In this document: positions 3,754-40,880 of the stretch, one piece after another
Position numbering within the stretch: the stretch's first letter is position 1
Layout: each line of letters begins with the position of its first letter
Assembly (NCBI GenBank): GCA_964528395.1
Contig: CAZGTC010000004.1
Location: 26,840-90,839 of the forward strand
Reading direction: 5' to 3'
Length of the DNA: 64,000 nucleotides
Origin: an uncultured bacterium
GTDB taxonomy: Bacteria; Margulisbacteria; WOR-1; CAZGTC01
Translations under genes and position numbers: made by a program
The notes under the pieces: generated by a model
Seen by the model: the letters and a program-made list of their open reading frames with translations, nothing else
What the model was told of the DNA's origin: nothing
Database searches by the model: none

Positions 3754-4617
3754 ATGAAAAAAAAGCCAAAAATCATCATTATTATCGGGCCAACTGCAGT
3801 AGGAAAAACCAAATACGCCATAAAACTTGCCGAAACCAAGAACGGGGAAATTATTTCCGCGGATTCCATGCAGGTTTATAAAAAAATGGATATTGGAACT
3901 GCCAAGCCAACAAAAAAAGAACAGCAAGGCATAAAACATTATCTTCTAAGCATAAAAAATCCGGATCAAAGCTGGACCGTTGCAGATTTTATTTTTGAAT
4001 GCAGAAAAAAAATCAAAGCTATCTTAAAAAAAGGCAAACTGCCGATTATTGTTGGCGGAACTGGCTTGTATATCAATGCCCTGCTCCAAGGATTCAGCTT
4101 CCCGATCATTGAAGCTGATTTAAAGTATCGGAAAAAGCTCTATAAACGCGCGGAAAAACAAGGATCCCCAAAACTGCATGAAGAACTCCAAAAAATTGAT
4201 CCTTATGCTGCCAAGAAAATCCATCCCCATGATCTAAAACGCATTATTCGCGCGCTGGAAGTTTTTCATAAGACCGGCCAAATGATTTCACAGGTACAAA
4301 CCAAAAATCCCCTATCCAATGAATATGATATCCAAATTAAATTCCTGGATATGCCAAGGGAAAAACTTTACGCGCGCATTAACCATAGGGTAGGCAACAT
4401 GATAAAAAAAGGGTTAATCAAAGAAGTAAAAAAATTAAAAGCCAAAGGATATGATAAAAATCTTCCCTCTATGCAAGGCCTTGGCTACAAAGAAATTTTT
4501 GATTACTTAGACAACAAAACTACCAAAGAAGCCGCCATTGATCTTATCAAACAAAAAACCCGCAACTTCGCCCGCCGCCAGCTTGTTTGGTTTAGGCGAA
4601 TTCTAAGAGAGCAATAG
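3754..4617 (+). CDS. miaA: tRNA dimethylallyltransferase.
   Basis: GPTAVGKT P-loop, ISADSMQVYKKMDIGTAKP and GGTGLY motifs typical of MiaA. Confidence 0.85.
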   Translation: MKKKPKIIIIIGPTAVGKTKYAIKLAETKNGEIISADSMQVYKKMDIGTAKPTKKEQQGIKHYLLSIKNPDQSWTVADFIFECRKKIKAILKKGKLPIIVGGTGLYINALLQGFSFPIIEADLKYRKKLYKRAEKQGSPKLHEELQKIDPYAAKKIHPHDLKRIIRALEVFHKTGQMISQVQTKNPLSNEYDIQIKFLDMPREKLYARINHRVGNMIKKGLIKEVKKLKAKGYDKNLPSMQGLGYKEIFDYLDNKTTKEAAIDLIKQKTRNFARRQLVWFRRILREQ

Positions 4618-5980
4618 TTTCAACATGATAGGTTTGGGGAAACATGTCCAGCGGGATAATCCTTTTGAGCTTGTAACTTGCCTCGCAAAATATTTTTAGA
4701 TCCCGCGCCAGGGTAGCTGGATTGCAGGAAACGTAAATAATCTTTCGCGGCTGGTTTTTTATAATCTCTCCGATAATAAAAGGAGAAATCCCCACGCGCG
4801 GCGGGTCAATAATAATTAGATCTTGTTTTTCCTCAAGAATGTTAATCGTTTTTTCTACTGGCCCAGCAATGAATGAAGTGTTTTTTATTCCATTTTGGCT
4901 GGCATTTTCCAGTGCATCCTCTATGGCAAAAGCATTTTCTTCTAGACCGATTACTTGCTTAGCTTTGCCCGCCAAAGACAGCCCCAGCCCCCCAACTCCG
5001 CAATATAAATCTGTGACTTTTTCTTGTCCGCTCAACTCCGCCAATTTTTCCACCAACATATAAAGCTTGGCGGTTGCCAAAGGATTGACCTGAAAAAAAG
5101 AAGGGAAAGAAAACCTTAGCTGCAATTGGTTTATCTTTTCTACTAAAAAAGACTCCCCAAATAAAAGGCTGTTAGCTTCCCCTAGAATCGTATTAGTTTG
5201 CTGGGTATTGATATTGATAAAAAAACCTTTGAGATTGATCTTTTTTTCTAGTTGTTCAACCAAGCGCTCGGCTTGCGGAAAAGTTTCCCCATTGATAGAA
5301 AATCCAGCAACCACAGCATCTTCTGTTAAACTGTGCCGGGCAATAAAATGCCGCGCCAGACCGGTATGTTTTTTTTCATCATAAACCGAAAACTCTATGT
5401 TTTTTAAAGCTTGAGCTGCCTGGTTGAGCATGGGATGGACGATCAAACAATTTTCAATGTCCACCACATCATGCGTCTCCTGCCGATAATACCCTAAGAT
5501 AATTTTTTCTCGCATACGGTTTGGATTTTGAAATTGGGATTTTATTTGGCTTTTGGCATTGGGATTTGGGATTTTTTTTATCGGGTAAGCGATTTTATTC
5601 CGATAATTCCACGGCTCTTCCATGCCCACAACATCTTCTACCAGATAAGAATCCATTTTACCGATTCTTTCCAAAGCTTCTTTAATCAAACTTTTTTTTG
5701 CTTTTAATTGGGCGGAATATTGTAAGTGCTGCCATTGGCAGGCTCCGCACAGCCCAAATACCGGGCAAGGAGGATCCGCCCGATCAAGAGACGGGGTTTT
5801 TAGTTTCGCGATCCGAGCCCGGGCGTAATTTTTCTTTTTTACTATAATTTTTAGATCTGCGATATCCCCTGGCGCGCCATAGTCTACAAACACTGGGAAA
5901 TTATCCAAGCGGCCAAAGCCCTGGCCTTCATTCACCAGTTTTTCTACCGTAAAATTTTCTATTACATCCCCTTGTAACAT
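4592..5980 (-). CDS. rlmD: 23S rRNA (uracil-5)-methyltransferase, RlmD/RumA family.
   Basis: N-terminal TRAM-like region. CGACQWQH Fe-S cysteine cluster. C-terminal SAM-MTase motifs (DLYCGVGG, IDPPR). Confidence 0.75.
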   Translation of the reverse strand: MLQGDVIENFTVEKLVNEGQGFGRLDNFPVFVDYGAPGDIADLKIIVKKKNYARARIAKLKTPSLDRADPPCPVFGLCGACQWQHLQYSAQLKAKKSLIKEALERIGKMDSYLVEDVVGMEEPWNYRNKIAYPIKKIPNPNAKSQIKSQFQNPNRMREKIILGYYRQETHDVVDIENCLIVHPMLNQAAQALKNIEFSVYDEKKHTGLARHFIARHSLTEDAVVAGFSINGETFPQAERLVEQLEKKINLKGFFININTQQTNTILGEANSLLFGESFLVEKINQLQLRFSFPSFFQVNPLATAKLYMLVEKLAELSGQEKVTDLYCGVGGLGLSLAGKAKQVIGLEENAFAIEDALENASQNGIKNTSFIAGPVEKTINILEEKQDLIIIDPPRVGISPFIIGEIIKNQPRKIIYVSCNPATLARDLKIFCEASYKLKRIIPLDMFPQTYHVETIALLEFA

Positions 5981-6008: not shown

Positions 6009-6677
6009 ATGGATATCGGACAGAGGATTGAATTCCATAGCCATTCTTTATTTTCCGACGGGATTTTGCTCCCAGCAGCCCTAGTTCGAGAAGCCGGGAT
6101 AAGAAATATAAAAGCCCTGGCCATTACTGACCATGCGGATGCTTCAAATATTGATACGGTTTTACAGCCTATCCTAAAATTTTTAAAAGCCGAGGAAAAA
6201 ACCCTAGAAGTAAAGCTTATCCCAGGCATTGAATTAAGTTATACCAAGCCCCAGGACATTGAAAAATATGCAAAACTCGCACGCAAACACGGGGCAAAAA
6301 TTGTTATTGTGCACGGGGAATCCCCAATTGAGCCGCTTTATCCTGGCACCAACCATTCTGCTGTCCAGCAAAAAGGCATTGTAGACATACTTGCCCATCC
6401 GGGCTTTATCACCAAAGAAGATGTGGAGCTGGCAAAAAAGAATAATATTTTTCTCGAGCTTTCTGCTAAAAACGGGCACAAAGACGGAAATAAGCATGTA
6501 GCAATTTTAGCTTTGGAAATTGGCGCAAAGATGCTGGTAGGATCCGACGCGCACAATGAAAATGGCTTAATTACCCAGGAACAAGCCCTGAATATCTGCC
6601 TCGAAGCCGGCCTCACCCAAGATCAAGCCCTCAAAGTTATCATCGACAATGCGGAAGAGTTGTTGAAAAGGGTTTAA
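6009..6677 (+). CDS. PHP-domain metal-dependent phosphoesterase.
   Basis: HSHSLFSDG and ITDHAD motifs of the PHP (polymerase/histidinol phosphatase) fold. 222 aa. Confidence 0.6.
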   Translation: MDIGQRIEFHSHSLFSDGILLPAALVREAGIRNIKALAITDHADASNIDTVLQPILKFLKAEEKTLEVKLIPGIELSYTKPQDIEKYAKLARKHGAKIVIVHGESPIEPLYPGTNHSAVQQKGIVDILAHPGFITKEDVELAKKNNIFLELSAKNGHKDGNKHVAILALEIGAKMLVGSDAHNENGLITQEQALNICLEAGLTQDQALKVIIDNAEELLKRV

Positions 6678-7909
6678 GCGAAAAAACGCGAAGCAGAAAC
6701 TATATACATGCCCTTTGTTTTTGCGCTTAAGATATTAGGTTCTTTAATAATTTGTACAAAGGGAACATTGTTTAAAAACTCCCTATGGCGATAGTGGTGT
6801 TGGGCTATCTCTTTGTCAGAAAGCTTGGCCTCACAGAGAAGAAAGGGTTGTTTATTCTTCGTAATCAAAAAATCCGATTCCCCGCCATCGCGAGAACGAA
6901 CAAAAAACAACTCATAATTCTCAACCAACAAATCATTCCATAAATCTACTCGGCTTTTAAGCTCAAAAGCCACATAATTTTCAAAACGTTTTGCTTCATC
7001 TGTTAAATCAAGCCAATTATAAAAGTAAACCTTTTTCTCTTTCTTCACTAATCGGCTTTTCTTTTGATAATACGGAGAAATTTCAAAAAGAACGTAAGAT
7101 AAAACTAGATAACGGATATAGTTTTTTATAGTATTAACATGAACATCTAAATCTTGCCGAAGCGAATTAAGTGATAAAGGAGATCCTATTTTGATCGGCA
7201 ATAAATATAATAAATCCAGAACTTTTTCCAGCATATGGATATGAGAAATATCGCGCAAATCCTCTTTTATAATCCTCTCAAAATAATCTTGCTGCCACTT
7301 TTTAGCAAATAAAGCATTATTGCTTAAAAAAGGCTCTGGAAAGCCGCTAAAATGCAATAGTTGTTCTAGTTCTGTTTGGTAGTAGTTCGGAAAAGAAATA
7401 AATTTTTCGATAGTAAGCTGGCCATCTTTTTCTGGAAGAATGTTTTTAACTGGTTTTTTTAAGATTTCGGACAGGATAAAAGGATTAAGCCTAAAAAGAA
7501 AATATCTTCCTGCCAAGCTATCTCCAGCTCTTCGAAATAGATCTAGCCGCGCACTTCCAGTAACAATGTAAGTAACTTTATTTTCATAGGTATCAAAAAA
7601 ATCTTTAAGAATATTTTTCCAACGGGGCATTTTATGTATTTCATCAAAACAAACCCAATAATGGTTTTTACTTCCCATATTAATAAGATCATTTTCTAAA
7701 AAAGAAGACTCTTCTCTAAACCGTTTTCGAACCGATTTTTTATCCCAATTATAGTAGAGCAAAGATGAATTAACTTTTTCTAATTGATGTTTTGCAATAG
7801 TCGTTTTACCGCATTGGCGGGGTCCAGCAATAAACCTCATTTGCCGGCCCATTTCAGGAGAAAAAGCCGCTTCTTCTAAAAATCTAGGGTAAATTTTATC
7901 TTCAGACAT
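6674..7909 (-). CDS. AAA-family ATPase (DUF4143/COG1373-type ATP-binding protein).
   Basis: Walker A GPRQCGKTT near the N-terminus. Overall architecture of the widespread archaeo-bacterial DUF4143 ATPases. Confidence 0.55.
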   Translation of the reverse strand: MSEDKIYPRFLEEAAFSPEMGRQMRFIAGPRQCGKTTIAKHQLEKVNSSLLYYNWDKKSVRKRFREESSFLENDLINMGSKNHYWVCFDEIHKMPRWKNILKDFFDTYENKVTYIVTGSARLDLFRRAGDSLAGRYFLFRLNPFILSEILKKPVKNILPEKDGQLTIEKFISFPNYYQTELEQLLHFSGFPEPFLSNNALFAKKWQQDYFERIIKEDLRDISHIHMLEKVLDLLYLLPIKIGSPLSLNSLRQDLDVHVNTIKNYIRYLVLSYVLFEISPYYQKKSRLVKKEKKVYFYNWLDLTDEAKRFENYVAFELKSRVDLWNDLLVENYELFFVRSRDGGESDFLITKNKQPFLLCEAKLSDKEIAQHHYRHREFLNNVPFVQIIKEPNILSAKTKGMYIVSASRFFA

Positions 7910-8027
7910 ACAAGATAATTATACATACTTATGCAAAAAAGTCAAGACTAAATTATATGATTATATAAATTAGTCAAGACCAGAACAGAATCTGTTTCAT
8001 TTTGGTCAGAAAAATAACAAACTAAGA

Positions 8028-8058
8028 GAGAGCTTATCTTTTTATCGACCTGCCTACC
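8028..8058. repeat. About 30-nt repeat AGAGCTTATCTTTTTATCGACCTGCCTACCC 3' of paralogue A, overlapping the hairpin 8049-8082.
   Basis: Near-identical copy at 9656-9686, 3' of the TA pair and of paralogue B. The hairpin is CCTGCCTACCCGGCC...GGCAGGCAGG. Confidence 0.6.
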
Positions 8059-8117
8059 CGGCCTACCGGACAGGCAGGCAGGTAAGCCCTCTTAGAAAAA
8101 ACTTTAATCTGCAATAA

Positions 8118-8981
8118 CTACATATTTGTATCGTATAAAATTCTTTTGCTTTGCTGTATTATTAGAGGTGCGATTTTAAAAGTTTGAGTTATATATGTCA
8201 TAGTAGGTTCCGCATAGAATTGTCCTTGTTCAATTGCAGCACCAGATATAGTATAAGTATTATTATAATAATTCACAATTCCTTCGGCATCTAGTTTCAT
8301 AAGGGCAGGATCTGTTTGTTTCGCAATTAAACGAATTATTCCGATACGATTATCAAAATCCATCTGAGAATTATCCCCAATCATTCCTTTTATAAAACTA
8401 ACATAATCACCTTTCCCTGGCCCACCAGGAACATCTTCTGCCATCTTAAATTTCCTCACTGGCTGTTGAAAAGGATCTAGGCCTTTTCCAATATAAACCA
8501 AATATGGAGAAGCAAAACCATTTACTTGATCAATTTTTTGTTTGGTTGACCAAGCATATAAATCAAATTTTCCCTTTGGATAAGTTCCACTGCTAACAAC
8601 GTCCTCAAAAACAATTTCAATTTCGATTTCGCCCTCATTAAAAACTACGGTCCTTTTATTCTGCATAACAGGAACCAGTGCTCGTTGAGCGAGATCCTTT
8701 AATGTATTTTGTAACCTAACCTTAAACTGTGTCTCATCTATTTGAATCTCATTTTTCTGTGTTTTCTTCATCTGATAAGTTTTTGGAGGAGCTCCATCTC
8801 TTCCCATCGCAGGCTTAACCTCTTCTACAACAATTTTTTTTGTGCCTTCTATACTCGAAACACCAGCCCCTTGGGATTGCTTCTCCTGCGGAATATCTGG
8901 TATAAGCTCAAAATCCTCCGCAATAGCCACTAGACCCAAAACCAAACTCAACCCCAAAAATAACATCAAAAACCTTTTCAT
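8118..8981 (-). CDS. Secreted hypothetical protein, paralogue A.
   Basis: Signal peptide MKRFLMLFLGLSLVLGLVAIAEDFE is nearly identical to that of the 9959..11263 ORF. GAAGGGGG RBS. Upstream and downstream flanks are shared with the paralogue. Confidence 0.5.
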   Translation of the reverse strand: MKRFLMLFLGLSLVLGLVAIAEDFELIPDIPQEKQSQGAGVSSIEGTKKIVVEEVKPAMGRDGAPPKTYQMKKTQKNEIQIDETQFKVRLQNTLKDLAQRALVPVMQNKRTVVFNEGEIEIEIVFEDVVSSGTYPKGKFDLYAWSTKQKIDQVNGFASPYLVYIGKGLDPFQQPVRKFKMAEDVPGGPGKGDYVSFIKGMIGDNSQMDFDNRIGIIRLIAKQTDPALMKLDAEGIVNYYNNTYTISGAAIEQGQFYAEPTMTYITQTFKIAPLIIQQSKRILYDTNM

Positions 8982-9023
8982 AAAAACCCCCTTCTTTTTT
9001 TTATTTACCTAAATCTTAACACG

Positions 9024-9055
9024 AGCATAATAATAATAATAATAATCAATGTCAA
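9024..9055 (-). promoter_or_regulatory. Putative sigma70-like promoter of paralogue A: TTGACA (9050-9055, minus), 20-nt spacer containing (ATT)6, TATGCT -10 (9024-9029).
   Basis: Hexamers read on the minus strand. Spacing is 20 nt, against 17 nt for the paralogue. Confidence 0.4.
9029..9046 (-). repeat. (AAT)6 trinucleotide tract inside the promoter spacer of secreted paralogue A.
   Basis: Direct read. Flanked by the conserved context AACACGAGCAT(AAT)nC, which is also present upstream of paralogue B with n=4. Confidence 0.8.
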
Positions 9056-9080
9056 TCTGGTTTTGGGGCATAAGTAAAAT

Positions 9081-9127
9081 TTGACATATAGTACGTAATA
9101 TGGTACGCTTTGGTCGAGGTGATAATA
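9081..9127 (+). promoter_or_regulatory. Putative promoter/operator region of the yefM-yoeB operon (TTGACA at 9081-9086; GTAC-containing inverted repeat AGTACGTAATATGGTACG; GAGGTGA RBS).
   Basis: Read from sequence. The -10 element is not confidently placed. Confidence 0.3.
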
Positions 9128-9370
9128 ATGACAACTTTAACTGCTAGCGAAGCAAGAACTCGGCTCTTTAAATTATTGGATGAAACCGCCTCCTCTCATG
9201 AACCCATTCAAATCAAAGGCAAAAGACATAGTGCGGTTTTAATTCCTTCAGAAGATTGGGAATCTATACAAGAGACGCTTTATCTACTTTCTATACCTAA
9301 AATGAGACAGTCAATCCAAAAGGGACTGGCTGTCCCTCTAGAAAAATGCAAAAAGAAGTTAAAATGGTAG
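9128..9370 (+). CDS. yefM: Type II antitoxin, Phd/YefM family.
   Basis: MTTLTASEARTRLFKLLDE N-terminus typical of YefM. GAGGTGA RBS 6 nt upstream. 4-nt overlap with the downstream YoeB-like toxin. The ORF track began at an upstream TTG. Confidence 0.7.
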   Translation: MTTLTASEARTRLFKLLDETASSHEPIQIKGKRHSAVLIPSEDWESIQETLYLLSIPKMRQSIQKGLAVPLEKCKKKLKW

Positions 9371-9630
9371 ATTGGCAATTAGTTTATACCGCTCAAGCTC
9401 AAAAAGATGCAAAAAAACTCTCACAAAAAGGGCTGCGTATAAAGGCAGAAAAAATTCTGACTATTTTAAAAGCTAATCCCTTTCAAAATCCTCCGACTTT
9501 TGAAAAATTAGTTGGGGATTTAGATGGAGCCTATTCACGACGCATAAACATCCAGCATCGGATTGTTTATCAAGTTTATAAGGTTTCAAAAACCGTCAAA
9601 ATTATCCGCATGTGGACGCATTACGAGTAA
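9364..9630 (+). CDS. yoeB: Type II toxin, YoeB/Txe family mRNA interferase.
   Basis: C-terminal SRRINIQHRIVYQV ... IIRMWTHYE matches the YoeB catalytic region (RRI..HRLVY..RYHY). Translationally coupled to the antitoxin. Confidence 0.75.
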   Translation: MVDWQLVYTAQAQKDAKKLSQKGLRIKAEKILTILKANPFQNPPTFEKLVGDLDGAYSRRINIQHRIVYQVYKVSKTVKIIRMWTHYE

Positions 9631-9655
9631 ATGTGTGTGTAAAAATAAAAACAAA

Positions 9656-9686
9656 AGAGCTTATCTTTTTATCAACCTGCCTGCCC
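9656..9686. repeat. Second copy of the 30-nt repeat (AGAGCTTATCTTTTTATCAACCTGCCTGCCC).
   Basis: 29/31 identical to the copy at 8028-8058. Confidence 0.6.
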
Positions 9687-9738
9687 CTCCTGACTTTCTC
9701 TTTTGTGTATCACAAGCAAAATTCAATATTTTGAAACC

Positions 9739-9760
9739 GATATCATAGGGACAAGTCGCG
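9739..9760. other. Perfect 22-bp palindrome GGGACAAGTCGCGACTTGTCCC between the TA operon and paralogue B; possible bidirectional terminator hairpin or protein-binding site.
   Basis: Direct read. No flanking U-tract. Confidence 0.3.
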
Positions 9761-9958
9761 ACTTGTCCCTAAAGAAGGCTACAAACGTAAAAAGTTGCGA
9801 TTTGGGTGTTGCAAAGTTAAAATTACAGCATGTTTGCAAGAAAAATCCGTAATTACAGCGGTTCATTTAGTGTTCAAATTATTTCCAAAACTGGAGGCAA
9901 GTACCGCGTTATTGAAATAGCGGGAACCTCAAACGATCCCTAGATAAATAAAAATTTA

Positions 9959-11263
9959 TTAAGGGGTAACACGTATTATAAAAGTCTTTTCAATCCTCCA
10001 ATCAAGATGCTTATTATAATTATCAACATTTGGATATCGTTGTTTAATTTCTTCCCTCACTTTATTATAGTGAACAAGCATATCCTTTAAGTTAATCGTA
10101 TAGACATAATCACTTATTAGCTTATCTTTTTCCAAATCAAAAAGCACAAAATGAATTTTCGCATTTGAAAGCTCTTGATAAACTTTACCCTTGGCATCCG
10201 TCATATCATAAGGAACTACCACCCAATTCCCAATGATTGAAGAATAAGCTTGCTTTTGAATATCTTCTATTAAACGAAGCCCATACTTACGCACATCGCG
10301 TGGAGCTGTATTTTCTCCTTCTCGATGTTTTTCACCGACTCCTTGATAATATTTATCAGAGTGAGGATCCATTCTTTTATCTTTTGGGTGAAGTATCGCC
10401 AATAAATTAATTGCCTGGTATTCATAATAAACTAAACATCCTACATTCACCCAATCTTTCATTATCTCCAAATTAACGGGTAAATTCATTGCATTATCAA
10501 ACCTTATTTCGAAATCTAGAAATAAAGTAAAAATGGGTTTTTGGGCTCCATTAGGAAAAATATAATCATTGGCAGGAAAAGTCCTATAAGTACAGGTTGT
10601 ATTACCCTTATTCACGCTACTAATATCCTCAAAAACATATTGCATTGTCATATTCGACGGCATAATTTGATCTTTTACAACTAACCCTTTCATTGGAATC
10701 CCTGTCCCTCCAGTTTGAGGAGAAAACTGCTTCATATCTTCTGCTTTCTGTGCCCCTGTCTTAAATTTAGGAATCCCTCCCAATCTATTAAAAAAATCTT
10801 TTTGTGGAACCATATTAATAATTCCTGTTGTCCCAAATATTTTCAGATCCGATACAAAATTAAGAGAATTTCCCTCGCCATCGCCAAACGGATCATTATT
10901 TATTAATTGAGGTTTTGCTTCTATAGGCTGGGTCCCTGAAGCCTTTGGCATTATTTGTAAAGATTCAGTACCTGGAATCGTTGGTTTTATTTGTACCGGT
11001 TGAGCCCCTGGACTGGTTGGCCCCATTTGTAAGGGCGGGGCTCCCTGATTTACAGGTTTCACTTGTATGATTTCGGCTTCTTTTGTTATTATTTTTTCTT
11101 CATATTCATCCCTAAGCTGGAATTGTTGTTGTGGAGGGAGTTTTTGTTGTTCTTTTGGAGCTGGGGGTAGAACTTGTTTTTGGAGTATCTCAAAATCCTC
11201 TGCAATTGCAGCAAAGCCCAAAAACAAGCACATTCCTAAAAACAAAATAAAAATTTTCTTCAT
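9959..11263 (-). CDS. Secreted hypothetical protein, paralogue B (Pro/Gln-rich linker).
   Basis: Signal peptide MKKIFILFLGMCLFLGFAAIAEDFE shared with the 8118..8981 ORF. AAGGGGG RBS. Same 5'UTR and 3' repeat. Confidence 0.5.
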   Translation of the reverse strand: MKKIFILFLGMCLFLGFAAIAEDFEILQKQVLPPAPKEQQKLPPQQQFQLRDEYEEKIITKEAEIIQVKPVNQGAPPLQMGPTSPGAQPVQIKPTIPGTESLQIMPKASGTQPIEAKPQLINNDPFGDGEGNSLNFVSDLKIFGTTGIINMVPQKDFFNRLGGIPKFKTGAQKAEDMKQFSPQTGGTGIPMKGLVVKDQIMPSNMTMQYVFEDISSVNKGNTTCTYRTFPANDYIFPNGAQKPIFTLFLDFEIRFDNAMNLPVNLEIMKDWVNVGCLVYYEYQAINLLAILHPKDKRMDPHSDKYYQGVGEKHREGENTAPRDVRKYGLRLIEDIQKQAYSSIIGNWVVVPYDMTDAKGKVYQELSNAKIHFVLFDLEKDKLISDYVYTINLKDMLVHYNKVREEIKQRYPNVDNYNKHLDWRIEKTFIIRVTP

Positions 11264-11296
11264 AAATGCCCCCTTATTTTTCTTAAACTAAACACG

Positions 11297-11325
11297 AGCA
11301 TAATAATAATAATCGAGGTTGTCAA
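11297..11325 (-). promoter_or_regulatory. Putative sigma70-like promoter of paralogue B: TTGACA (11320-11325, minus), 17-nt spacer containing (ATT)4, TATGCT -10 (11297-11302).
   Basis: Hexamers read on the minus strand. Optimal 17-nt spacer. The shared 5'UTR continues to a GAAGGGGG/AAGGGGG RBS. Confidence 0.45.
11302..11313 (-). repeat. (AAT)4 trinucleotide tract inside the promoter spacer of secreted paralogue B.
   Basis: Direct read. Same flanking context as at 9029-9046. Confidence 0.8.
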
Positions 11326-11349
11326 TTAGCCTTTAACTATCTTCTACTA

Positions 11350-13092
11350 TTATCGAAAAACCGCGAATTTATCTTTGCCCATTATCTTTCCATTGGCAAC
11401 AAGGGTAAAAACATAGATCCCATTCGGAACTTCCCCCTCTGTAACACTCTGGCCATTCCAATTTATGCGGTTCAAGCCTTTTTTGCCTCCTTCTTGGCCA
11501 GACTCAAATTGTTTTTTCCAAACAATCTGTCCGCTAATATCAAAAACATAAAATTCCAGGCGCAAATCTTCGGGTAAAACATATTCAAAATTTATTTTTC
11601 CATGCACGGCTGGATTAAAAGGGCTCGGCCCGGCTTTTATTGCTGTGGCTTTATCCTTTTCAATTTTTTGAGCCTTGATCGTTACTTCTCCATACACGTT
11701 TTTATCGCTCAATGAAGTAATTCTAATTTTTACATCTCCGTCCAAATGCGGAGAAATCGTCCAATTATATTCAATATAATCAGAACTATTAGTTACATTA
11801 GAAATAATAAGGTTGCAGTCCTTGGAAAAATTATCCAAAGAATATTCCAATTTTACTTTTTCAATGGAACTATCCGCAAGCGCCTTGATCAGCACCACAT
11901 CTCCCCCCATAAACTCCTGGCCATAAGAAGGAGAAAGCATCTCAATTCCGGGAGTAACAAAGGCAAAAAATGGATCAGAAATATCTTCTAACTTGTTGTC
12001 TTCTGAATAAACCTTTAGTTGGACATTGCGCATATTTTTGTTTGGGATGTCTAACAATATATACCCGCTATTTAAATTGCCGCTACCCAAAACCACTTTT
12101 TTCTCCTCGATCCGGCCTTCTACCACATAGCGCGCGCTCCTATCCTTGGCACGGATCCACAATTCGCTTTTTTCCCCGGCTTTCATGTTTTTATTTATAC
12201 TTTCAAAATCCGCCTTGAGCAAAGGAGGATCTTCAATTTTGATCGACTCGATATTAGATATAACTTTTTTATCTTCCTCCCCAATCAGCTTAAAAGAAAT
12301 GGTTTTTCCTAATATCTGGGAAGTGGCTTTAATTCCCAAAAAATTCGTGTCCGCAGAAACAACTTTTATATCCTTGGAGGTTTTTTCAAAATTATCATAA
12401 GAATAAGTTATTTTTAAGTTTTCAACATTTTCAGCCGCCTTCCATTGGACAAAAATCTTATCTCCTGGCGCGGAAAAACGCGGCTTAAAAGGAAAAAGCC
12501 GAATAGTACTAGGAGGAATATCTTCCTCGCCTTGAGCTTTTATTGATTGAGCTGATAACATCGGTTTTTCTTCTTCTGGAGGATTAGAAGTTTGTGAAGA
12601 TGGCATGCTCGAAGCTGCACTTGCAGGCCCGGCTTGAGAAGAAGGGGAAGAAGCAATATCGAAAATGTTTAAGCTAATTGCTTCGCTTTGGATAAAAATT
12701 TTGGGGGAAGATGCGTTCCTTACAATAAATTCTACAAATCCGCTTGATATTTTTCCCGGCAGGTTAAAATCAAGCTGGTTTTTCCCTGAAACAACTTTTA
12801 CTTCTTTTGAAATACAATAGGTGTTTTTATCCTGCAAACTATAGGCTTCGATCGAAACCACTTCCGCGGAAATAGAACTTTTTTCCCAAACAATTGAATA
12901 GGTTTTGTTCTTTTCTGACATCTGGCTAAAAGAAGGCTTAATAACTTTTACTTTTTCATTTTTTGAAGAAGGCTTTTCTTTGTCTACTTCAAAATCTGCA
13001 GGAGGAGGAAAAGAAAAAGCTAGTAAAAATATCATCGATAGAAAAAAAAGAATAAAAAAAACGGTTAATGCAATCAGCAATTTTTTTTTCAT
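11350..13092 (-). CDS. Secreted protein with T9SS-type (Por_Secre_tail/FlgD-Ig-like) C-terminal sorting domain.
   Basis: N-terminal TM/signal segment MKKKLLIALTVFFILFFL. C-terminal FNPA...LEFYVFDISGQIV...NGIYVFTLVANGK...KFAVFR pattern. Start chosen at the internal ATG at 13090-13092 to avoid overlap with hisD. Confidence 0.5.
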   Translation of the reverse strand: MKKKLLIALTVFFILFFLSMIFLLAFSFPPPADFEVDKEKPSSKNEKVKVIKPSFSQMSEKNKTYSIVWEKSSISAEVVSIEAYSLQDKNTYCISKEVKVVSGKNQLDFNLPGKISSGFVEFIVRNASSPKIFIQSEAISLNIFDIASSPSSQAGPASAASSMPSSQTSNPPEEEKPMLSAQSIKAQGEEDIPPSTIRLFPFKPRFSAPGDKIFVQWKAAENVENLKITYSYDNFEKTSKDIKVVSADTNFLGIKATSQILGKTISFKLIGEEDKKVISNIESIKIEDPPLLKADFESINKNMKAGEKSELWIRAKDRSARYVVEGRIEEKKVVLGSGNLNSGYILLDIPNKNMRNVQLKVYSEDNKLEDISDPFFAFVTPGIEMLSPSYGQEFMGGDVVLIKALADSSIEKVKLEYSLDNFSKDCNLIISNVTNSSDYIEYNWTISPHLDGDVKIRITSLSDKNVYGEVTIKAQKIEKDKATAIKAGPSPFNPAVHGKINFEYVLPEDLRLEFYVFDISGQIVWKKQFESGQEGGKKGLNRINWNGQSVTEGEVPNGIYVFTLVANGKIMGKDKFAVFR

Positions 13093-13111
13093 AGGCGAAA
13101 TATTCTGTTTT

Positions 13112-14395
13112 TTATTTAAAACGAATGCTGATCGAATGCGCGTGCGCATCCAAGCCTTCAATGTTTGCCAATTTCTCAATCGCCAAGCGGTTTTCCTTGA
13201 GCGCAGACTTGGTATACCCCAAAAAACTTTGGTATTTTATAAAATCATAAACCCCCAGAGGAGAAGAAAACCGCGCCCCGCCCTCGGTGGGCAAGACATG
13301 GTTGGGCCCTGCCATATAATCCCCCACTGTTACCGGGGAATACGGCCCCATAAAAACTGCACCCGCATGTTTTATTTTTTCCAGGATCGACTGCGGGTTA
13401 TCCAGCATAATTTCTAAATGTTCCGGCGCTACTAAATTGGCAATTGCAACCATTTCATCCACAGTTGAAACAAAGAAAATTCGGCCGCGCTTTTTTAAGC
13501 TTTGCTGGATAATATTTCTGCGCTTTAAGCCCTTAAGCTGTTTTACGATTTCTTTTTGTAAAGCATTGATAAAATCTAAGGAATTTGATACCGCAAAAAC
13601 TGAAGCATTCGCATCGTGTTCTGCCTGCGCCAAAAGATCCGCAGCCGCAAAAGCCGGGTTGCTCTCGCAATCCGCCAGGATCAAAACATCCGAAGGCCCG
13701 GCAAACTTGTCAATACCCACAACCTTGCTTAAAAGAAGCTTGGCAATATTTACAAAAACATTGCCCGGCCCCGCAATTTTATCAACTTTTGGGATGCTTT
13801 CTGTACCAAAAGCCATGGCTGCAATGGCCTGCGCCCCGCCCACTTTATAAATCTCCCGCACTCCCAGCTGGTCTGCTGCTACCAAAATAAGCGGATGCAA
13901 AGTTTTGTTTTTATTCGGCGGGGAGCAAAGGCAAACCTTGCCCACCCCGGCAACCAAAGCTGGGATAACATTCATCAAAACCGAAGAAGGGTAAACCGCG
14001 CTTCCGCCCGGCACATACACCCCGACCCGGTCAATCGGAACTGCCCTTAAGCCCAAAACTACATCGTTTTTTGCTGTATCAAAAAAAATATCCGGTTTTT
14101 GCTTATCGTGGAAGGAGCGGATATTTTCAATTGCACAATTTAAAGCGCTTAATGTTGCTTTATCCACTTTTTTATAAGCTGCTTTTATCTCTTCTTCTTT
14201 TACCTGCAAGCCGCAGGCAGAAAGGTCTGCTTTATCGTATTTTTTGGTTAGCTTAAAAAGCGCGCGGTCCTTGCCTTTCAAGACTTGGGAAATAATTTTT
14301 TTTACTGCGTTTTCTTCCGGGAGGAAATAAAAGCCTTTGCGCAAGGACTCGATCTCGGCTTTTATCTTTTCGCTGCCTTTTACTACTTTTAGCAT
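13112..14395 (-). CDS. hisD: Histidinol dehydrogenase.
   Basis: GGAQAIAAMAFGTESIPKVDKIAGPGNVFV and the HisD Zn-ligand region. Full length, 427 aa. Confidence 0.85.
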   Translation of the reverse strand: MLKVVKGSEKIKAEIESLRKGFYFLPEENAVKKIISQVLKGKDRALFKLTKKYDKADLSACGLQVKEEEIKAAYKKVDKATLSALNCAIENIRSFHDKQKPDIFFDTAKNDVVLGLRAVPIDRVGVYVPGGSAVYPSSVLMNVIPALVAGVGKVCLCSPPNKNKTLHPLILVAADQLGVREIYKVGGAQAIAAMAFGTESIPKVDKIAGPGNVFVNIAKLLLSKVVGIDKFAGPSDVLILADCESNPAFAAADLLAQAEHDANASVFAVSNSLDFINALQKEIVKQLKGLKRRNIIQQSLKKRGRIFFVSTVDEMVAIANLVAPEHLEIMLDNPQSILEKIKHAGAVFMGPYSPVTVGDYMAGPNHVLPTEGGARFSSPLGVYDFIKYQSFLGYTKSALKENRLAIEKLANIEGLDAHAHSISIRFK

Positions 14396-31909: not shown

Positions 31910-34900
31910 ATGAGACCTTTCTTTAATCAATTTACTAGGCCAAACCTTTTTAATCCATATGGTTTAGGATCACATAACATTGGGGAAGGGATTGGACGGC
32001 TAGGGAGAACCCTTTTATTTCCACGTGTACATTGTAAAGGAGAAGGCGGCCCCCCCAGTGCCCCTTCTGCCCCAGCTGCCGGAGTTTCTACCGCCCCTGC
32101 GCAAGCCGCTGCTGGCAAAGTCATTCAGAGCGCCTTATTCATTGAACGAGCTCGGTTGTTTAGCCTCTTAGATCCTACAAATAAAGACTTAACCCAACAA
32201 ACCAGAATTTTAGAAGGTTATGCTCATGGGCAATATCCAATATTCGACAATGTCTTAGCCGGAAACACATTTCAAACGCTTATTTCTCACAACAGCCCGC
32301 TAAATCAATCTGGTTTGGCTGAAAAAGCACTAGATCGATTAGGCGGACTAAATCTTAGGAACAGGGAAATTAATCCTGCGGATGCTTATATGCAAATGAA
32401 AAGCATTGAAAGGATCTTAAATGAAACCCTTTATAATCGCTTGCTCATGTTTTTAGAAAATGGTACTCTCGCAACCCAAAGAGGCCTTCTCTTGTTTTTT
32501 TATCAATATGCCCTTATTACCAAGGGGGAAGAAAATGTAAAAATTAATGTCCCCCCAGAGCTAAAAACCGCTCTTGATAATGCAAAAAAAACCATGGCCG
32601 CAGAATGGGCACAAGAAAATGAACGCCTAAAAGCCATGGGCCAGGCTCCTGCCACACAAACTGATTTTGCACGTTTGATCTACGATGAAGGGAAGTTATC
32701 TCTTGCCAATATTATGGCAAAGCCCGGCGAAGCTGGAAGAGAAATGAGGACCATTGACCTTGAAACTGTTCTGGACGCCTTTAGAAATGAAAAAAGCAGC
32801 GACTTAATTCGCTCGGCCTTAAGGCATGCCCTGGCCAGTATTTTTGCCGGCCAAGAAAAAGATATGTTTCTCCAAATAACTACATCCCTTGAAGCCAATC
32901 AATTAGAGCAGCTTCCGCTTACCTTAAAAATAGCTCGTATTCTGTTTCAAACTCTTAATTCGCCAGAAAAAAAATCAAGACTCTACTCTCTTATATTTAA
33001 TTTTTATAGGGATAATCCTAACTCCCCCCTGAAAGAAGAAATACTAGATACCTTGGTCACTTTTAAATATGACGCCTTTGTCCATCCTAGCCGAAAATAT
33101 GCCGAGGACATGATCCAGCAAGAACTAGATCCTAATTCTCAAACTCCGCTGCGCAAAGCTGCAGGATCCAAGGCCGCAGAACCAATCGTCCTTCCCAAAA
33201 ATCGCGACCTTATGCTATATGTAGAAAAAATCTGTAAGGAATTAGGCGGGGAGCTTGTCAGCGCTATTTGCACTTTGGTAAAAGAAAAAAACATGCCAAA
33301 ATCACTTAGGGCAACTAATGGAAAAGCCGTAGAATCAACGGATATTTATAATAAATCCCAAGATGAGCTAAGCCAAAGGATTAGGGCTTTGAGCCAAACC
33401 GCGCAAAGGGTTTTTTGGGCTGCAGCTGATACCAGCGATCCGGATAAATTGCCAAACGAAGTATCTATGATCGGGAATTTGGATGCTTTTATTGAACTTA
33501 TCCAATTTATGATAAAAGAATTCAAGTTTGACCCCAGCTTACCAGGAAAAGTCATGTTGAGTAAGGCTGGCGCTGGAAGCCGCAGCGGCTTATTGGGCCT
33601 AGCTGAGGCCATTGACAAAGGCACAATTCGCTTAGGAAGAACTGCTTTTGAAACTATTTCCACTTTTGCTGCGGTCATTGTTTTATCACAACTGCCTGAC
33701 CATGGCAAAGGCTGGATCGTATTTACAGGCTGCGACCAGATGCTGATTCCTTATGGAGGAGACAATTTAACAATTGGAAGACATAAGGTTGTTGATTATG
33801 AAAAAAACACGGGCACAAAACTTCCGGGATTAATTATTACAACCGTTAGAGCTGAAGTCGAAGGATCTACCAATGCTGATGATTATAAATATTTATGCGG
33901 ATTAGGCAATGTTATTATTACTTCCAAGGACCTGCGCACAGATGTTGATGAAAAATCCAAAACTCCCGAAGGCCTGCGCCTAGCTTTTGTAGAAAAACCC
34001 AAAACCGTAGAACTTTTAAGGGAACAATTAAGAAAAGCCACTCTCTTTTCTGTTTTGGGAAAAGAAAACAATTGGGGTTCCAACTTAAAAAATTTTCTTA
34101 AGGGTAAAAACTTAGGGGGGGTTCCAGTAGAAGATTTATTTCTTGCCTGCGCTCAAGATTTAAACGTTACGCTCACATATTCCGGAAGTTTGAGAGATTA
34201 TTTTCTTGAAGTAGCTCGCGGGGAAAAAACCTTAGGCAATCCTAAACTGAATGCATTGGCTAAAGGCTTTATGTACACTTATATTAATACCTTTGTTATG
34301 TCCGCACGAGTAGAGATTGCAAAAATGCTTACCGAAGTATATGAAATGCCAACCGAAACAGATTCCTCCAGCATTTTAAGAAAAATATTTACCCAAGATC
34401 CTTATTTTGATTGGTCTCAATTGCTTATGGAAGCCATGGTCATTGGAAAAGACGAGCACCGCTATAAACCCGCAGCTAAAATACAAGGGGAATGGGAAAA
34501 TTTAAGGAAATGCAGCCAAAGATATGCCCGTATTTTATCTGAAATAGATGCTGATTTTGCAACAAGCCTTAATTTGCCCGCAAATTTTGATCTACCAGAA
34601 AATATGCCAACATCAATAAGCCCAGAACTAAACCAAAAGATAGAAGCTTTGGTTTGTCTAAGAGCCTGGGAAATTCGCAAAAGAAAAACCGAGGGATGGC
34701 AAAAGGTTGAACTAAATGACTGGATGCGGCTCTGGTGGGCAGCGCGAAAAATAGAACATTCCGCCAACGGACTAGGCGTAGCAGTAGCAGATTATTTTTC
34801 TGATACTGGAACCGTGGTAGAAGTTTTTAAGGTTTATTTTCAGATATTTTTTGATGAAAATAGAGCTGATCCTTATTTGAATAAAGACTATGCAGAAATC

Positions 34901-35548
34901 CAGCGCTTTTCACAAGGGCTTAGTACAACCCCAATACAAGGGCAAAATCGCTTTGTAAACTTTGAAAAAGGCATAAAATTTGGAGGAGAATCTCTAAATG
35001 AAGAACAGCTTTCACGCTTAAATACCTCAACTGATCCAATAACCATAAATGGGGTAACAATCCAAAATCCTAGATTTACTTATATTGGAGAAGGAACCGA
35101 GCTTGCGCAGGGTACAACCGTAGAACCATGGTCCATTCTTTTGCAAGCTAAATTGGGACAATCTACCCATATCCCTTCTTACTGTATTATAAATGGCGCT
35201 AATATCCCAAAAGCTCAAGTGGTATTTCCTGAACAAGAGCTTCCAAAAATTAAAGGGAAAAATGAGCAGGAACGAATTGCGCGGCCAGATGAAATAAAAC
35301 CCGGACACATGAGAATTATCTATGACCAGACATATGAAGGAGAAAAAACTCTGGTAATTGAGCCAAGTACTTTACATGGAAGCATTGAATTAATGGATAG
35401 CTTAAGGGCTCAAGCTTTGCAAGACATTAACGACGCAAAAATAAAAGGCCAAGTCCCCGGAGTTGGCATTGGTTTTGACCATTTAGCCAGCGCAGTACAA
35501 GCCTTTCCTAGGAGATTGCCCAGGGCAATTGATGGGGGGAAAAAATAA
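31910..35548 (+). CDS. Giant hypothetical protein (1212 aa), Ala/Pro-rich N-terminus, possible nucleotidyltransferase-like glycine loop.
   Basis: Long uninterrupted ORF starting 2 nt after the previous stop. KAGAGSRSGLLG resembles the G-x-G-(T/S)-R loop of sugar nucleotidyltransferases, a weak match. Confidence 0.45.
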   Translation: MRPFFNQFTRPNLFNPYGLGSHNIGEGIGRLGRTLLFPRVHCKGEGGPPSAPSAPAAGVSTAPAQAAAGKVIQSALFIERARLFSLLDPTNKDLTQQTRILEGYAHGQYPIFDNVLAGNTFQTLISHNSPLNQSGLAEKALDRLGGLNLRNREINPADAYMQMKSIERILNETLYNRLLMFLENGTLATQRGLLLFFYQYALITKGEENVKINVPPELKTALDNAKKTMAAEWAQENERLKAMGQAPATQTDFARLIYDEGKLSLANIMAKPGEAGREMRTIDLETVLDAFRNEKSSDLIRSALRHALASIFAGQEKDMFLQITTSLEANQLEQLPLTLKIARILFQTLNSPEKKSRLYSLIFNFYRDNPNSPLKEEILDTLVTFKYDAFVHPSRKYAEDMIQQELDPNSQTPLRKAAGSKAAEPIVLPKNRDLMLYVEKICKELGGELVSAICTLVKEKNMPKSLRATNGKAVESTDIYNKSQDELSQRIRALSQTAQRVFWAAADTSDPDKLPNEVSMIGNLDAFIELIQFMIKEFKFDPSLPGKVMLSKAGAGSRSGLLGLAEAIDKGTIRLGRTAFETISTFAAVIVLSQLPDHGKGWIVFTGCDQMLIPYGGDNLTIGRHKVVDYEKNTGTKLPGLIITTVRAEVEGSTNADDYKYLCGLGNVIITSKDLRTDVDEKSKTPEGLRLAFVEKPKTVELLREQLRKATLFSVLGKENNWGSNLKNFLKGKNLGGVPVEDLFLACAQDLNVTLTYSGSLRDYFLEVARGEKTLGNPKLNALAKGFMYTYINTFVMSARVEIAKMLTEVYEMPTETDSSSILRKIFTQDPYFDWSQLLMEAMVIGKDEHRYKPAAKIQGEWENLRKCSQRYARILSEIDADFATSLNLPANFDLPENMPTSISPELNQKIEALVCLRAWEIRKRKTEGWQKVELNDWMRLWWAARKIEHSANGLGVAVADYFSDTGTVVEVFKVYFQIFFDENRADPYLNKDYAEIQRFSQGLSTTPIQGQNRFVNFEKGIKFGGESLNEEQLSRLNTSTDPITINGVTIQNPRFTYIGEGTELAQGTTVEPWSILLQAKLGQSTHIPSYCIINGANIPKAQVVFPEQELPKIKGKNEQERIARPDEIKPGHMRIIYDQTYEGEKTLVIEPSTLHGSIELMDSLRAQALQDINDAKIKGQVPGVGIGFDHLASAVQAFPRRLPRAIDGGKK

Positions 35549-38500
35549 TGAGTATTATTAATAAAATAACCAGACTTTTTAAATCTACTTCTTCAGTGAC
35601 CAGCCCAAATACTATGGGGCCAAGAACCCAGCTAGCACTGGTTATGCTAAAACCCGGGGCCTTGGTAGCCTCACAATTTGTAGCCCAAGAACTAATCTCA
35701 AAGCTAGAGAAAATCCAAGGGGTATCCTCTATCCAAATAATCTGCCCTGAAATTTTTCCTTTTACTCCAGAAAAAGCGGATGCCTTTTATAAAAAACCTT
35801 TGGAAGGCAAACCTCCTGCATTAAAAAAAGAAATTGTTTCCCGCATGTCTGCAACTTCCGAAAACCCGGGTGAAGCCCAAACCCCGGTGATTGCTTTTAT
35901 TGTACGAGCAACTGTCGCCGGAGAAAAATCCCTTTATGAAATATTAAGGCAGCCAGATGTTATTGGCCCAACCTGGCCCATGGTTGGAGCTGGCGAAGGG
36001 AATATCGAAGTGGATGGGAAAACCATCCCAGCTTCTTTGGAAAAAATCAATGAGAGCTTGCGCCGCCAAGTTGAAGCGAGGTTTGGATTTAGCCCAACTA
36101 TTCGAGGCAATCCTAAAAATGCTTTTAATTTTATCCATTGTTCAGATAGCGAAAGAAATGCCTGGGAAGAAATCTCCCATCTTTTTAATCGTTCCGACCT
36201 GGAAAAATGGGGAATAGACAAAAAAACCCTGGATGCTATTTATCCAACCCCTCAAAACCCTAACCCTGTCAGCTACCCTTTCTTTAATTTAAACGGGCAA
36301 ATAACCATAAGCCAGTTTGCTTCGCCTCCAACTGATTTAGCTTTATTTATGCATGCTCAAAAGATTCTAGATAGAATAAATGCCCAACGCCAACAAACTG
36401 GACTAGCGACTTATCGAGATTTTAGTGCCCAAGCTCTTGAGCATATCTTATTGGATTGGGCAAGATGGTATCAAGTTCAAAACATTCCTTCCCAGCCCTT
36501 GGATAAAAATATTGCTACTTTAATCGGGCCAAGCGGATCCGGAAAAACATCCGTGGCTATGGCCTTATCCCAAGGCTTAGTAAACCTGGACGCTCTTAGT
36601 CCCAAAGGGCAAATTGTTCTTTATAATTTTCTACTTAAACATAAGCTTATTGATAAATTAGGAATAGTGTCAAAATATTTTATAGAGAATTTTGCTGGCA
36701 ACAAAGAAGAAGCATTTTTAAAATTAGTTGAGGGAGACAATACCCTGCAGCTAAACTGGAAAAAACATCTCTATTCTTATTTAAATAAAACAACTCAAGA
36801 AGCTGCGCAAGACTTTCAATTGGTTACACTTTCTACCAGCCGGGAGGGAGGAATTGAACCTGGAGAAGAAAGCCTAGGCACTAGATTTGAACACCTTATA
36901 AACATGGGCAGCTTCAAAGCGGTAGAACATTTTAGCGATGCAACCGGCAATATAGGCTATGGCATAAAAAAAGAACCCCTTCGCACTGCCCAAGAAAGAA
37001 ATTCCGGAATGATACTTATTGTAGCTGGGCCAGAAATAGCCAGACAACTAAATAGTTATACACTTTATATACAACCAGCTACAAACATTCAAGAATTTGA
37101 AGAAGCCACTTTTGAACGCTTAAAACAACGCGAACAAACCACGGGTCGCAAAGCCAAGGATAGGATTGCAGCTTCGGTTGCTCAATATAAAAATCTCGAA
37201 AGATTAGACTACGATTTTACAATAAACAATCCCTTAACTACAGAAGAACAACAAAAAAATCCTGATCCAGTTCAAATTAACCGTGATTTTTGCGCACTCG
37301 TACAACAAGCTAAAACAACATTACAAAATTTATCTGGAGCTCCCCAAGGGCTAGGAAGCGTAGCTGTTGATGCCGGAGCTTTTCCTCCTCGCGCCGCTCT
37401 CTTGCGCAATTCCCTGTCTGGGCTTTTGGATAAAGTTCAAAAAACTGCAACTGCAACCTTATTTAATCCTGAAGGCGAACCATTCAAGGTTTTACGAGCT
37501 TTCTTGCTTGAATGTTTCCAAATGAATGAATCTCGAACCATCATGAGCAAAAAAGAAAAAAGCGATGGGACAAAACCGCTCGAAAGCAATATGACTGCGG
37601 AGCAAAATCTCGTAGAATCTACAACTGGCCATATCCTAGGGGTAGTTGGCATGGCAAAAGCGGTTGCCACTTTGCCAGAAGTTAATTTATATGCAGCCAA
37701 AGGCCCTGGGTTTGCCAGCCTTTGCTTAGGAACCGAAGATCTTCATCGCGAACGCGAGCGAAATAATCTTCAAGCAATTAATAATCTTCTGGCCGCGAAG
37801 GCCGTTACCCTCGCCTATTTTTCAGAGTTTGGCTCAATAAAGGCAAAAGAATATTGGAACATGCTTATCAAGGAGAAACAGATTAAACCAAATGGCCAAA
37901 TTTCAAAATTTGAAGGAAAGTTAGAAGCGTTTAAATTACCAAAAGACATTTCTGAAGAGATAAGAATTAAACTTTTCAATATTTTACTACGCGCTCAAAT
38001 CATAAAAGAAGAAACCCTTTTGCGTTTAGCCCTCCTACATGACATCGGAAAAATGCAAGAACCGGATAAGCTCTATGGCCATGATCGCCAAAGCGCACAG
38101 CTTATTGCTGATTGCCGTTTGTTAAAAAATATTCCTTTTGATCCAGCTAATCCAAAAAAAGTAGATGACTTAAAAAGCAAATTAGAAAAAGCTCAAGCCG
38201 AGGGTAAAAGCCCAGAAGAAATCGATGATATAGAACGTGAATTCTATGCTGTCCAAAGCGATGAAATAGAAGCTAACCGCACAATTTTTACCTTGGCGAT
38301 TAAACACCACCATGCAATTGGCGGGACCTTTGAAGGCGGGGTTTCAACCCATCATTTTGGGGAAATTTTCCGCGATTCAGAAGTAAAGGGAATTTTAGAG
38401 GAGCCGGGTTGCGATTCTATTGGGCGAGCAACCTTGCTTATCAACTACCTTGCTGCTATAACTCTGTTGGATATAGGCGGGCATGGCCTGCTTTCAAACT

Positions 38501-40855: not shown

Positions 40856-40880
40856 CGATATATATATGAGAGGGAAATTT
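40856..40880 (+). promoter_or_regulatory. Locus motif instance 3: CGATATATATATGAGAGGGAAATTT immediately before ATG 40881 of the 2168-aa gene.
   Basis: Same architecture as instances 2 and 5. The divergent intergenic region 40744-40880 carries one copy for each direction. Confidence 0.55.

Follow-up and report, generated by a model that had tools for sequence, protein, structure and literature searches.

A duplicated 5′ cassette with an ATT microsatellite in its predicted promoter precedes two unrelated orphan genes in an uncultured WOR-1 bacterium

Can a short ATT repeat, placed between the predicted promoter elements of two putative secreted-protein genes, switch these genes on and off? The question is raised by a stretch of 64,000 nucleotides (nt) from an uncultured bacterium of the WOR-1 lineage (Margulisbacteria; assembly GCA_964528395.1, contig CAZGTC010000004.1, positions 26,840 to 90,839), hereafter the window, in which an original prediction, made from the sequence letters, had proposed two genes, A and B, as candidates for phase-variable surface proteins. 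The reading favoured here, at a probability of about 0.55, is that a cassette of promoter, leader and signal peptide was duplicated and that the microsatellite embedded in it is core-promoter material whose length drifts over evolutionary time. One expression cassette, present twice, would be fused to the bodies of two unrelated, lineage-restricted and fast-diverging secreted proteins.

One 5′ cassette, two unrelated protein bodies

The elements of the two copies are listed below; a third cassette is known from a sister genome (contig L006).

8118–8981, minus strand: gene A, 287 amino acids (aa), signal peptide plus orphan body with one known homologue (31% identity), from the open reading frame (ORF) call and homologue search
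8982–9023, minus strand: leader of A, containing the conserved CGTGTT, a run of A8 (8995–9002, T8 when read on the plus strand) and a GGGGG ribosome-binding site (RBS) at 8987–8991
9024–9032, minus strand: overlapping −10 candidates of cassette A, TATTAT at 9027–9032 (17-nt spacer, 11/12) and TATGCT at 9024–9029 (20-nt spacer)
9029–9046, minus strand: (ATT)6 tract of cassette A, after the 3-nt pre-tract TTG
9050–9055, minus strand: −35 hexamer TTGACA of cassette A, from the consensus scan
9959–11263, minus strand: gene B, 434 aa, signal peptide of residues 1–21 plus EDFE (coded at 11186–11263), P/Q-rich linker and orphan body
11264–11296, minus strand: leader of B, with conserved CGTGTT and a GGGGG RBS at 11269–11273
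11297–11302, minus strand: −10 hexamer TATGCT of cassette B, 17 nt from the −35 hexamer (10/12 in the consensus scan)
11302–11313, minus strand: (ATT)4 tract of cassette B, after the 6-nt pre-tract ACCTCG
11320–11325, minus strand: −35 hexamer TTGACA of cassette B, where the similarity of the three cassettes begins

Upstream of both genes the same order of elements was found, namely TTGACA, a variable pre-tract, a pure ATT repeat, the invariant ATGCTCGTGTT, a short leader, the GGGGG RBS and ATG. The predicted anatomy, with TATGCT behind the tract, and the predicted tract lengths (n=6 for A and n=4 for B) were therefore confirmed, and the two cassettes can be written as TTGACA+TTG+(ATT)6+ATGCTCGTGTT and TTGACA+ACCTCG+(ATT)4+ATGCTCGTGTT, respectively, with a pre-tract of 3 nt defining the A-type and one of 6 nt the B-type. 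The 20-mer ATTATTATTATGCTCGTGTT, which spans tract and invariant block, has only two sites in the 64 kb (chance expectation 0), and the tracts of the two cassettes are the only trinucleotide repeats of at least four units in the window. First-order Markov simulation gave a mean of 0.21 such tracts, and a tract of at least six units arose in 0 of 150 runs; the repeat is thus real and non-random. Among the three cassettes, similarity starts exactly at TTGACA, the 11-nt block directly 3′ of the tract is nearly invariant and the pre-tract spacer is not conserved, and a search of Rfam with the leader returned no family match.

The 5′-untranslated region of A had also been credited with a T10 homopolymer, which is in fact T8 (8995–9002). 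As a second switch this run was rejected: it falls under the published cut-offs (below), and the window has 33 A/T runs of at least eight, this one included.

Both ORFs exist on the minus strand as predicted, with nearly the same signal peptide and different mature parts. Their description as paralogues holds for the 5′ cassette and the signal peptide (residues 1–27), but not for the mature proteins, which are unrelated by both BLASTP and hhalign: A and B share only residues 1–27 (MK..LFLG..L.LG..AIAEDFE; BLASTP of the N terminus, E=1e-9), and a profile built from A and its homologue aligns to B at these residues and nowhere else. A second, weak BLASTP segment (E=0.005), considered as remote homology of the mature parts, was not upheld by the profile comparison.

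The signal peptides of A and B are of Sec type, comprising a basic n-region and a hydrophobic core ahead of an AIA↓ED site, and those of A, B and A277 (the homologue of A in the sister genome) all end in AIA↓EDFE, a site of the signal peptidase I (SPase I) type. No conserved lipobox was seen, A and A277 having no Cys in residues 1–27 and Cys12 of B standing in an atypical LGMC context, which sets these proteins apart from prolipoproteins of the Vlp kind. Both A and B are probably exported. The whole cassette would then comprise a sigma-70-type promoter, a short leader with GGGGG RBS and a Sec/SPase I signal peptide ending in AIA↓EDFE.

Beyond the signal peptide, A and B are orphans without an assignable fold. 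Sequence searches of Pfam, NCBIfam, PHROGs, PADLOC and PDB with the two proteins returned no match, and their AlphaFold models were unusable (predicted local distance difference test scores of 32.5 and 30.7, respectively). A single homologue of A (31% identity) was found among 5.8 billion protein clusters, and none of B among 1.84 billion representative proteins. Residues ~73–120 of B (window ~10900–11050, minus strand) hold four degenerate P/Q-rich repeats of 12 residues (GAPPLQMGPTSP, GAQPVQIKPTIP, GTESLQIMPKAS and GTQPIEAKPQLI), which resemble a stalk or linker; these were spotted by eye and were not reported by Tandem Repeats Finder (TRF).

Promoter spacing and the predicted effect of tract length

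A consensus scan of 3.6 kb gave TTGACA-17-TATTAT for cassette A (11 of 12 matches; the top site of the scan) and TTGACA-17-TATGCT for cassette B (10 of 12), so that by consensus match alone the repeat lies inside the core promoter of both. Of the spacers originally assigned, 17 nt for B was correct, but the 20 nt given for A is the distance from TTGACA to TATGCT and overlooks a TATTAT that lies within the tract, exactly 17 nt from the −35 hexamer. Such a −10 box is spelled by the ATT repeats every 3 nt; (ATT)n would thereby both fill the −10-proximal part of the spacer and supply the −10 box itself.

The consequence for promoter spacing was followed in an in silico sweep, where n took every value from 1 to 10 for both cassette types and a spacing of 16–18 nt was taken as proper. 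In the A-type, a −10 box spaced by 17 nt was present at every n of at least 5 (at n=5 this box is TATGCT, at all higher n TATTAT), and in the B-type one was retained at every n of at least 4. The ATT unit regenerates TATTAT in phase, and therefore the promoter is kept at any length from these thresholds upward, each further unit adding 3 nt to the leader and the −10 box changing from TATGCT (4/6) to TATTAT (5/6). Proper spacing was lost by contraction only, at n=2–4 in the A-type and at n of 3 or less in the B-type. Both copies in the window are predicted ON. Since both stand at 17-nt spacing and expansion is harmless, any switch would be one-sided, that is, a threshold with buffered expansion and not a periodic toggle. 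The classic slipped-strand arrangement originally envisaged, where changes in repeat number move the promoter between functional and non-functional spacing, is not supported by the same result, as both copies are already properly spaced and gains are buffered.

A graded effect could also be considered, in which the tract is a tuning or binding element whose length or AT-rich geometry modulates RNA polymerase or a regulator at ATGCTCGTGTT in the manner of a rheostat. The stepwise change above threshold (TATGCT, 4/6, to TATTAT, 5/6, with a leader longer by 3 nt per unit) fits such an element, as does the contrast between the almost invariant 11-nt block after the tract and the unconserved spacer before it, and multiphasic output from a promoter-proximal tract has a precedent in the T-tract of sabA (PMC4081817). 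However, neither a regulator nor a palindromic operator could be identified, the leader is without Rfam match, and with three sequences only the conservation of the 11 nt may reflect shared ancestry; a tuning role is accordingly quite improbable.

A further question is whether the tract has any role in expression, as the promoters may lie elsewhere, or B may be co-transcribed with hisD and p609, the TTGACA-tract combination being a fortuitous match carried along by the duplication. Promoter-like matches are indeed no more frequent in the region than in shuffled sequences (16 versus 12.4 ± 4.3), and no terminator was found between the p609 stop (11350) and B, nor between A277 and its upstream gene in L006. 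Read-through from the upstream gene could therefore bypass the promoter of B and of A277 and may make it dispensable. Against this stand the rank of the two sites, which at 11/12 and 10/12 are at or near the top for the region, the start of the similarity of the three cassettes precisely at TTGACA, and the position of gene A, which faces a divergent operon (yefM/yoeB) and therefore needs a promoter of its own. Neighbouring genes, moreover, have canonical promoters of the same type, such as TTGACT-16-TATAAT at 7945–7918 before the AAA14 gene and TTGACA-17-TATAAT in L020, a fragment of a third genome. Because the promoters of neighbours are canonical and the cassette similarity begins at TTGACA, TTGACA plus tract is probably a real promoter, and a tract without any role is very unlikely. 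The promoter of the AAA_14 gene ends ~9 nt before the ATG, and its mRNA may be leaderless.

Tract length within the clone and between relatives

Exact-protein look-ups placed the locus in five further assemblies, which are 100% identical to the window over 1.3–7.3 kb, with no single-nucleotide polymorphisms or indels. The tract lengths in the assemblies are as follows.

Copy A, n=6: ERZ27284374, ERZ27284381, SRR8863431, SRR8863436
Copy B, n=4: ERZ27284374, SRR8863440

No contig of these assemblies ends at a tract. The heterogeneity of tract length that the original prediction proposed to look for in metagenome populations was thus absent from four assemblies for A and two for B, all at consensus level and of one clone. 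As the assemblies are evidently from a single clone, possibly with overlapping read sets, and a consensus hides minority length variants, the test is a weak one, and the invariance within the clone argues only weakly against rapid switching. Published cut-offs for phase-variable repeats are at least 10–11 for poly-A/T, at least six for dinucleotides and at least five for longer units, or at least 6–8 for di- and trinucleotides (PMC6321876, PMC5953494); measured against them, (ATT)6 is a borderline case, and (ATT)4 (in B and in the sister copy) and T8 fall short.

A difference in length does appear between genomes. The homologue A277 lies in the syntenic contig L006 (SRR22387926), in the order hisD, p579, cassette, A277, yoeB/yefM, AAA14 and PHP, with the following identities between window and L006.

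hisD, YefM, YoeB, AAA14 and PHP: 90–96% (protein)
134-nt cassette, window A versus L006: 92% (nucleotide)
Upstream surface protein, p609 versus p579: 55% (protein)
A versus A277: 31% (protein)

The cassette of L006 is A-type (pre-tract TCA; same leader, with an A7 run in place of A8) and has n=4, which leaves a spacer of 14 nt and no −10 box at 16–18 nt from its TTGACA; it is therefore predicted to be OFF or weak. Comparison with related genomes, as had been proposed, thus showed orthologous A-type tracts of n=6 (window) and n=4 (L006), in a single comparison across ~8–10% divergence. The three cassettes are otherwise ~78–92% identical, with tract lengths of 6, 4 and 4. Tract length thus changes between close relatives over evolutionary time, with a predicted functional consequence. 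Moreover, the cassette, at 92%, diverges near the genomic background rate, and the protein bodies, at 31–55%, are by the same comparison hyper-divergent or replaced. The A unit (~7979–9074) is absent at the corresponding position of L006, where an A-type unit occupies the slot of B.

Further relatives were few. The 90% clusters of hisD, AAA14, YefM and p609, together with a homologue search for p609, placed the lineage in three genomes or fragments only. A motif scan with ATTATTATGCTYGTGTTWAG gave four matches in GTDB genomes and nine in JGI metagenomes, all of them chance matches in unrelated contexts, and none in viral contigs; an alignment search with the N termini for family members returned nothing, and it also missed the query proteins themselves.

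These observations bear most directly on genuine slipped-strand phase variation of the threshold type, with high-frequency gain and loss of units, silencing at n<5 (A-type) or n<4 (B-type), restoration by re-expansion and, as a result, a population in which some cells display each secreted protein and others do not. Several features speak for it: the repeat sits inside a canonical promoter, the tract is non-random, B stands exactly at its threshold and the sister A-type copy one unit under its own, n differs between orthologous cassettes with 92%-identical flanks, the encoded proteins have signal peptides and evolve apart much more quickly than those of adjacent genes, and in vlp, maa2 and vmm switching by spacer length is an established mechanism (PMC2268961). 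However, no length variation was seen in the 4+2 assemblies of the clone, n=4 is under and n=6 at the edge of the published cut-offs (PMC6321876, PMC5953494), and, because expansion is buffered, A at n=6 would need two successive contractions to reach OFF. In addition, transcription from the upstream gene may run into B and into A277, as no terminator intervenes, and the difference of six versus four units spans ~8–10% nucleotide divergence, where ordinary indels are common (A8 versus A7 in the same leader being an example). We consider such phase variation unlikely. Doubtful, too, is the wider picture of a contingency locus in an apparently environmental lineage, in which (ATT)n forms overlapping −10 boxes and works as a one-sided threshold switch for mosaic, hyper-diverging secreted proteins. 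What survives of the proposal of phase-variable surface proteins is a repeat in the promoter of genes with signal peptides, whose number differs between copies and genomes; the clone showed no variation, and n lies at or below the cut-offs.

In the duplicated-cassette reading with evolutionary drift, both window copies would be in the 17-nt, ON configuration, and slippage would change tract length over evolutionary time, as the three known cassettes, with n of 6, 4 and 4, suggest. Contraction below threshold (n of 4 or less in the A-type, 3 or less in the B-type) would remove proper spacing, as may have occurred in the sister genome, and expansion would be buffered. The changes in tract length are probably slow and not those of a high-frequency switch. 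Five points weigh against this reading. The tract is pure and uninterrupted in three cassettes that otherwise are ~78–92% identical; chance would not be expected to yield (ATT)6 (seen in 0 of 150 simulations); and the sister genome stands exactly one unit under the ON threshold, as expected of a contingency locus caught OFF. Furthermore, consensus assemblies of a single clone, maybe with shared reads, are blind to minority variants and make a weak test of invariance, and secreted, hyper-divergent products are the kind whose genes phase-vary.

The surrounding locus and known systems

The features between and beside the two genes are as follows.

8022–8095, minus strand: terminator-like hairpin after A with a U-rich tail (−43.7 kcal/mol, z=−4.75), the 3′ arm of which is the first copy of a 3′ repeat
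9128–9630, plus strand: YefM antitoxin (9128–9370; PF02604, E=2e-17) and YoeB toxin (9346–9630; PF06769, E=2e-9), divergent from cassette A
9656–9691, minus strand: second copy of the 3′ repeat, consisting of the 3′ arm only and followed by a T-run, with no significant fold (z=+0.6)
9746–9771, no strand: perfect palindrome of 26 nt that adjoins the insertion sequence (IS) remnant, between yoeB and B
9830–9943, plus strand: what is left of an IS1634-family transposase gene, 37 codons from its 5′ end (matching the N termini of annotated transposases of that family; top tblastn match 62.5% across 32 aa, E=1e-4)

The toxin–antitoxin pair predicted between A and B is YefM/YoeB by Pfam, with 62.9 bits for PF02604 (cut-off 29.8) and 37.6 bits for PF06769 (cut-off 27), and the two genes overlap at 9346–9370, as a type II pair. 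Both A and B had been said to carry the same 3′ repeat of 30 nt. A repeat exists, but it is a direct repeat of 36 nt (8029–8064 and 9656–9691, 89% identical) that forms a terminator arm after A and a non-folding half near B, the second copy lying 268 nt past the stop of B, behind the IS remnant and directly after yoeB on the other strand. The hairpin after A carries (CAGG)3 at 8071–8082 in its GC-rich stem, and the terminator of L006 is without this GC-rich insert.

Because the Logan contigs of two runs stop at 9759 and 9888, in or beside the IS remnant and palindrome, this sequence is suggested to be repeated elsewhere in the genome or heterogeneous. In L020 (SRR22388213, 1–2522), the YefM/YoeB module occurs at 88–90% nucleotide identity with other neighbours; next to the module there come an AAA_14 gene unlike that of the window (24% identity) and then an unrelated partial ORF, with the terminator-arm-like GGCAGGTTGATAAAACGATAAGCCCTCTC between these two. 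The locus is rearrangement-prone, as seen in YefM/YoeB, the IS1634 remnant and a different layout in each of three genomes. Exchange of gene bodies may use the conserved 5′ cassette and, on the 3′ side, the terminator arm as homology anchors.

The AAA_14/DUF4143 ATPase (6674–7909, minus strand) has a match to PDC-S01, a candidate defence family in PADLOC (E=6e-45), and its presence alongside YefM/YoeB makes the locus resemble an accessory or defence islet. The two cassette copies would thus sit within a small, rearrangement-prone chromosomal islet with YefM/YoeB, the IS1634 remnant and a candidate defence ATPase. Upstream of B, the p609 gene (11350–13179, minus strand; 599/609 aa) overlaps hisD at its 5′ end, and the C terminus of its product is barely below the threshold for a type IX secretion system type A sorting domain (TIGR04183, 22.5 versus 23 bits; FlgD_ig, E=8e-4).

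Farther away, the regions 31910–39231 and 40866–47372 (plus strand) hold ORFs of 1,212, 1,227 and 2,168 aa without a Pfam domain at E of 1e-5 or below, near a 1,323-aa ORF with a GH8-like segment and an 1,881-aa ORF with TPR repeats. At 5520–5575, inside the gene of a 462-aa methyltransferase (4592–5980, minus strand), TRF reported 1.9 tandem copies of a 25-nt unit (TTTGGATTTTGAAATTGGGATTTTA, 86% match).

The nearest known systems share parts of this architecture. The vlp genes of Mycoplasma hyorhinis form a small family with a conserved 5′ block of promoter, leader and signal peptide and with divergent mature parts. A repeat between −35 and −10 sets their spacing, as poly(A) does in vlp, and likewise in M. 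arthritidis maa2 and, by TA repeats, in M. mycoides vmm (PMC2268961). The present tracts resemble these as simple repeats in the promoter spacer whose length sets the spacing (here by consensus match), but the unit is a trinucleotide in only 4–6 copies and itself encodes −10 hexamers, so that expansion does not inactivate; in contrast to vlp, the signal peptides are of the SPase I type without lipobox, and no variation was observed within the clone. In vlhA (pMGA) of M. gallisepticum, the number of GAA units in the promoter region governs variable surface proteins, the repeat flanks being conserved across the family and n varying among orthologues (PMC6258824). The trinucleotide repeat in the promoter region of variable proteins, its conserved flanks and the varying n are alike, yet the GAA tract is found ~40 nt upstream of the transcription start, outside both spacer and −10 box, activity is restricted to n=12, tracts of 6–12 or more units are typical and the family has dozens of members.

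A mosaic of one conserved 5′ expression cassette and unrelated bodies, as found here, also recalls the genes of the Borrelia burgdorferi ‘upstream homology box' (Erp/OspE/OspF), which have a leader peptide in common as well. Surface proteins that are otherwise dissimilar have their promoter and upstream region in common there (PMC7002432, citing Marconi 1996); those genes encode lipoproteins, lie on prophage plasmids and are not known to have a repeat-based switch, whereas two chromosomal copies with a microsatellite are present here. A caution comes from vpma of M. agalactiae, where a T-tract beside the −10 box looked switch-like but no ON/OFF variants arose in phase-locked mutants (PMC2268961). 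In both systems the tract directly precedes the −10 box of a surface-protein promoter and resembles a slippage switch; that of vpma was experimentally shown to be without ON/OFF role, whereas the present locus is known from sequence alone.

The locus is thus a modest candidate for phase variation. Should the tract switch expression after all, it would extend repeat-driven phase variation beyond the well-studied host-associated pathogens, and would contribute a different logic, with a threshold in place of a periodic switch because the −10 box comes from the repeat itself. Even without switching, it offers a clear example of the reuse of a promoter and signal-peptide cassette for unrelated orphan secreted proteins, the bodies of which stand at 31–55% identity while the flanking genes stay 90–96% identical.

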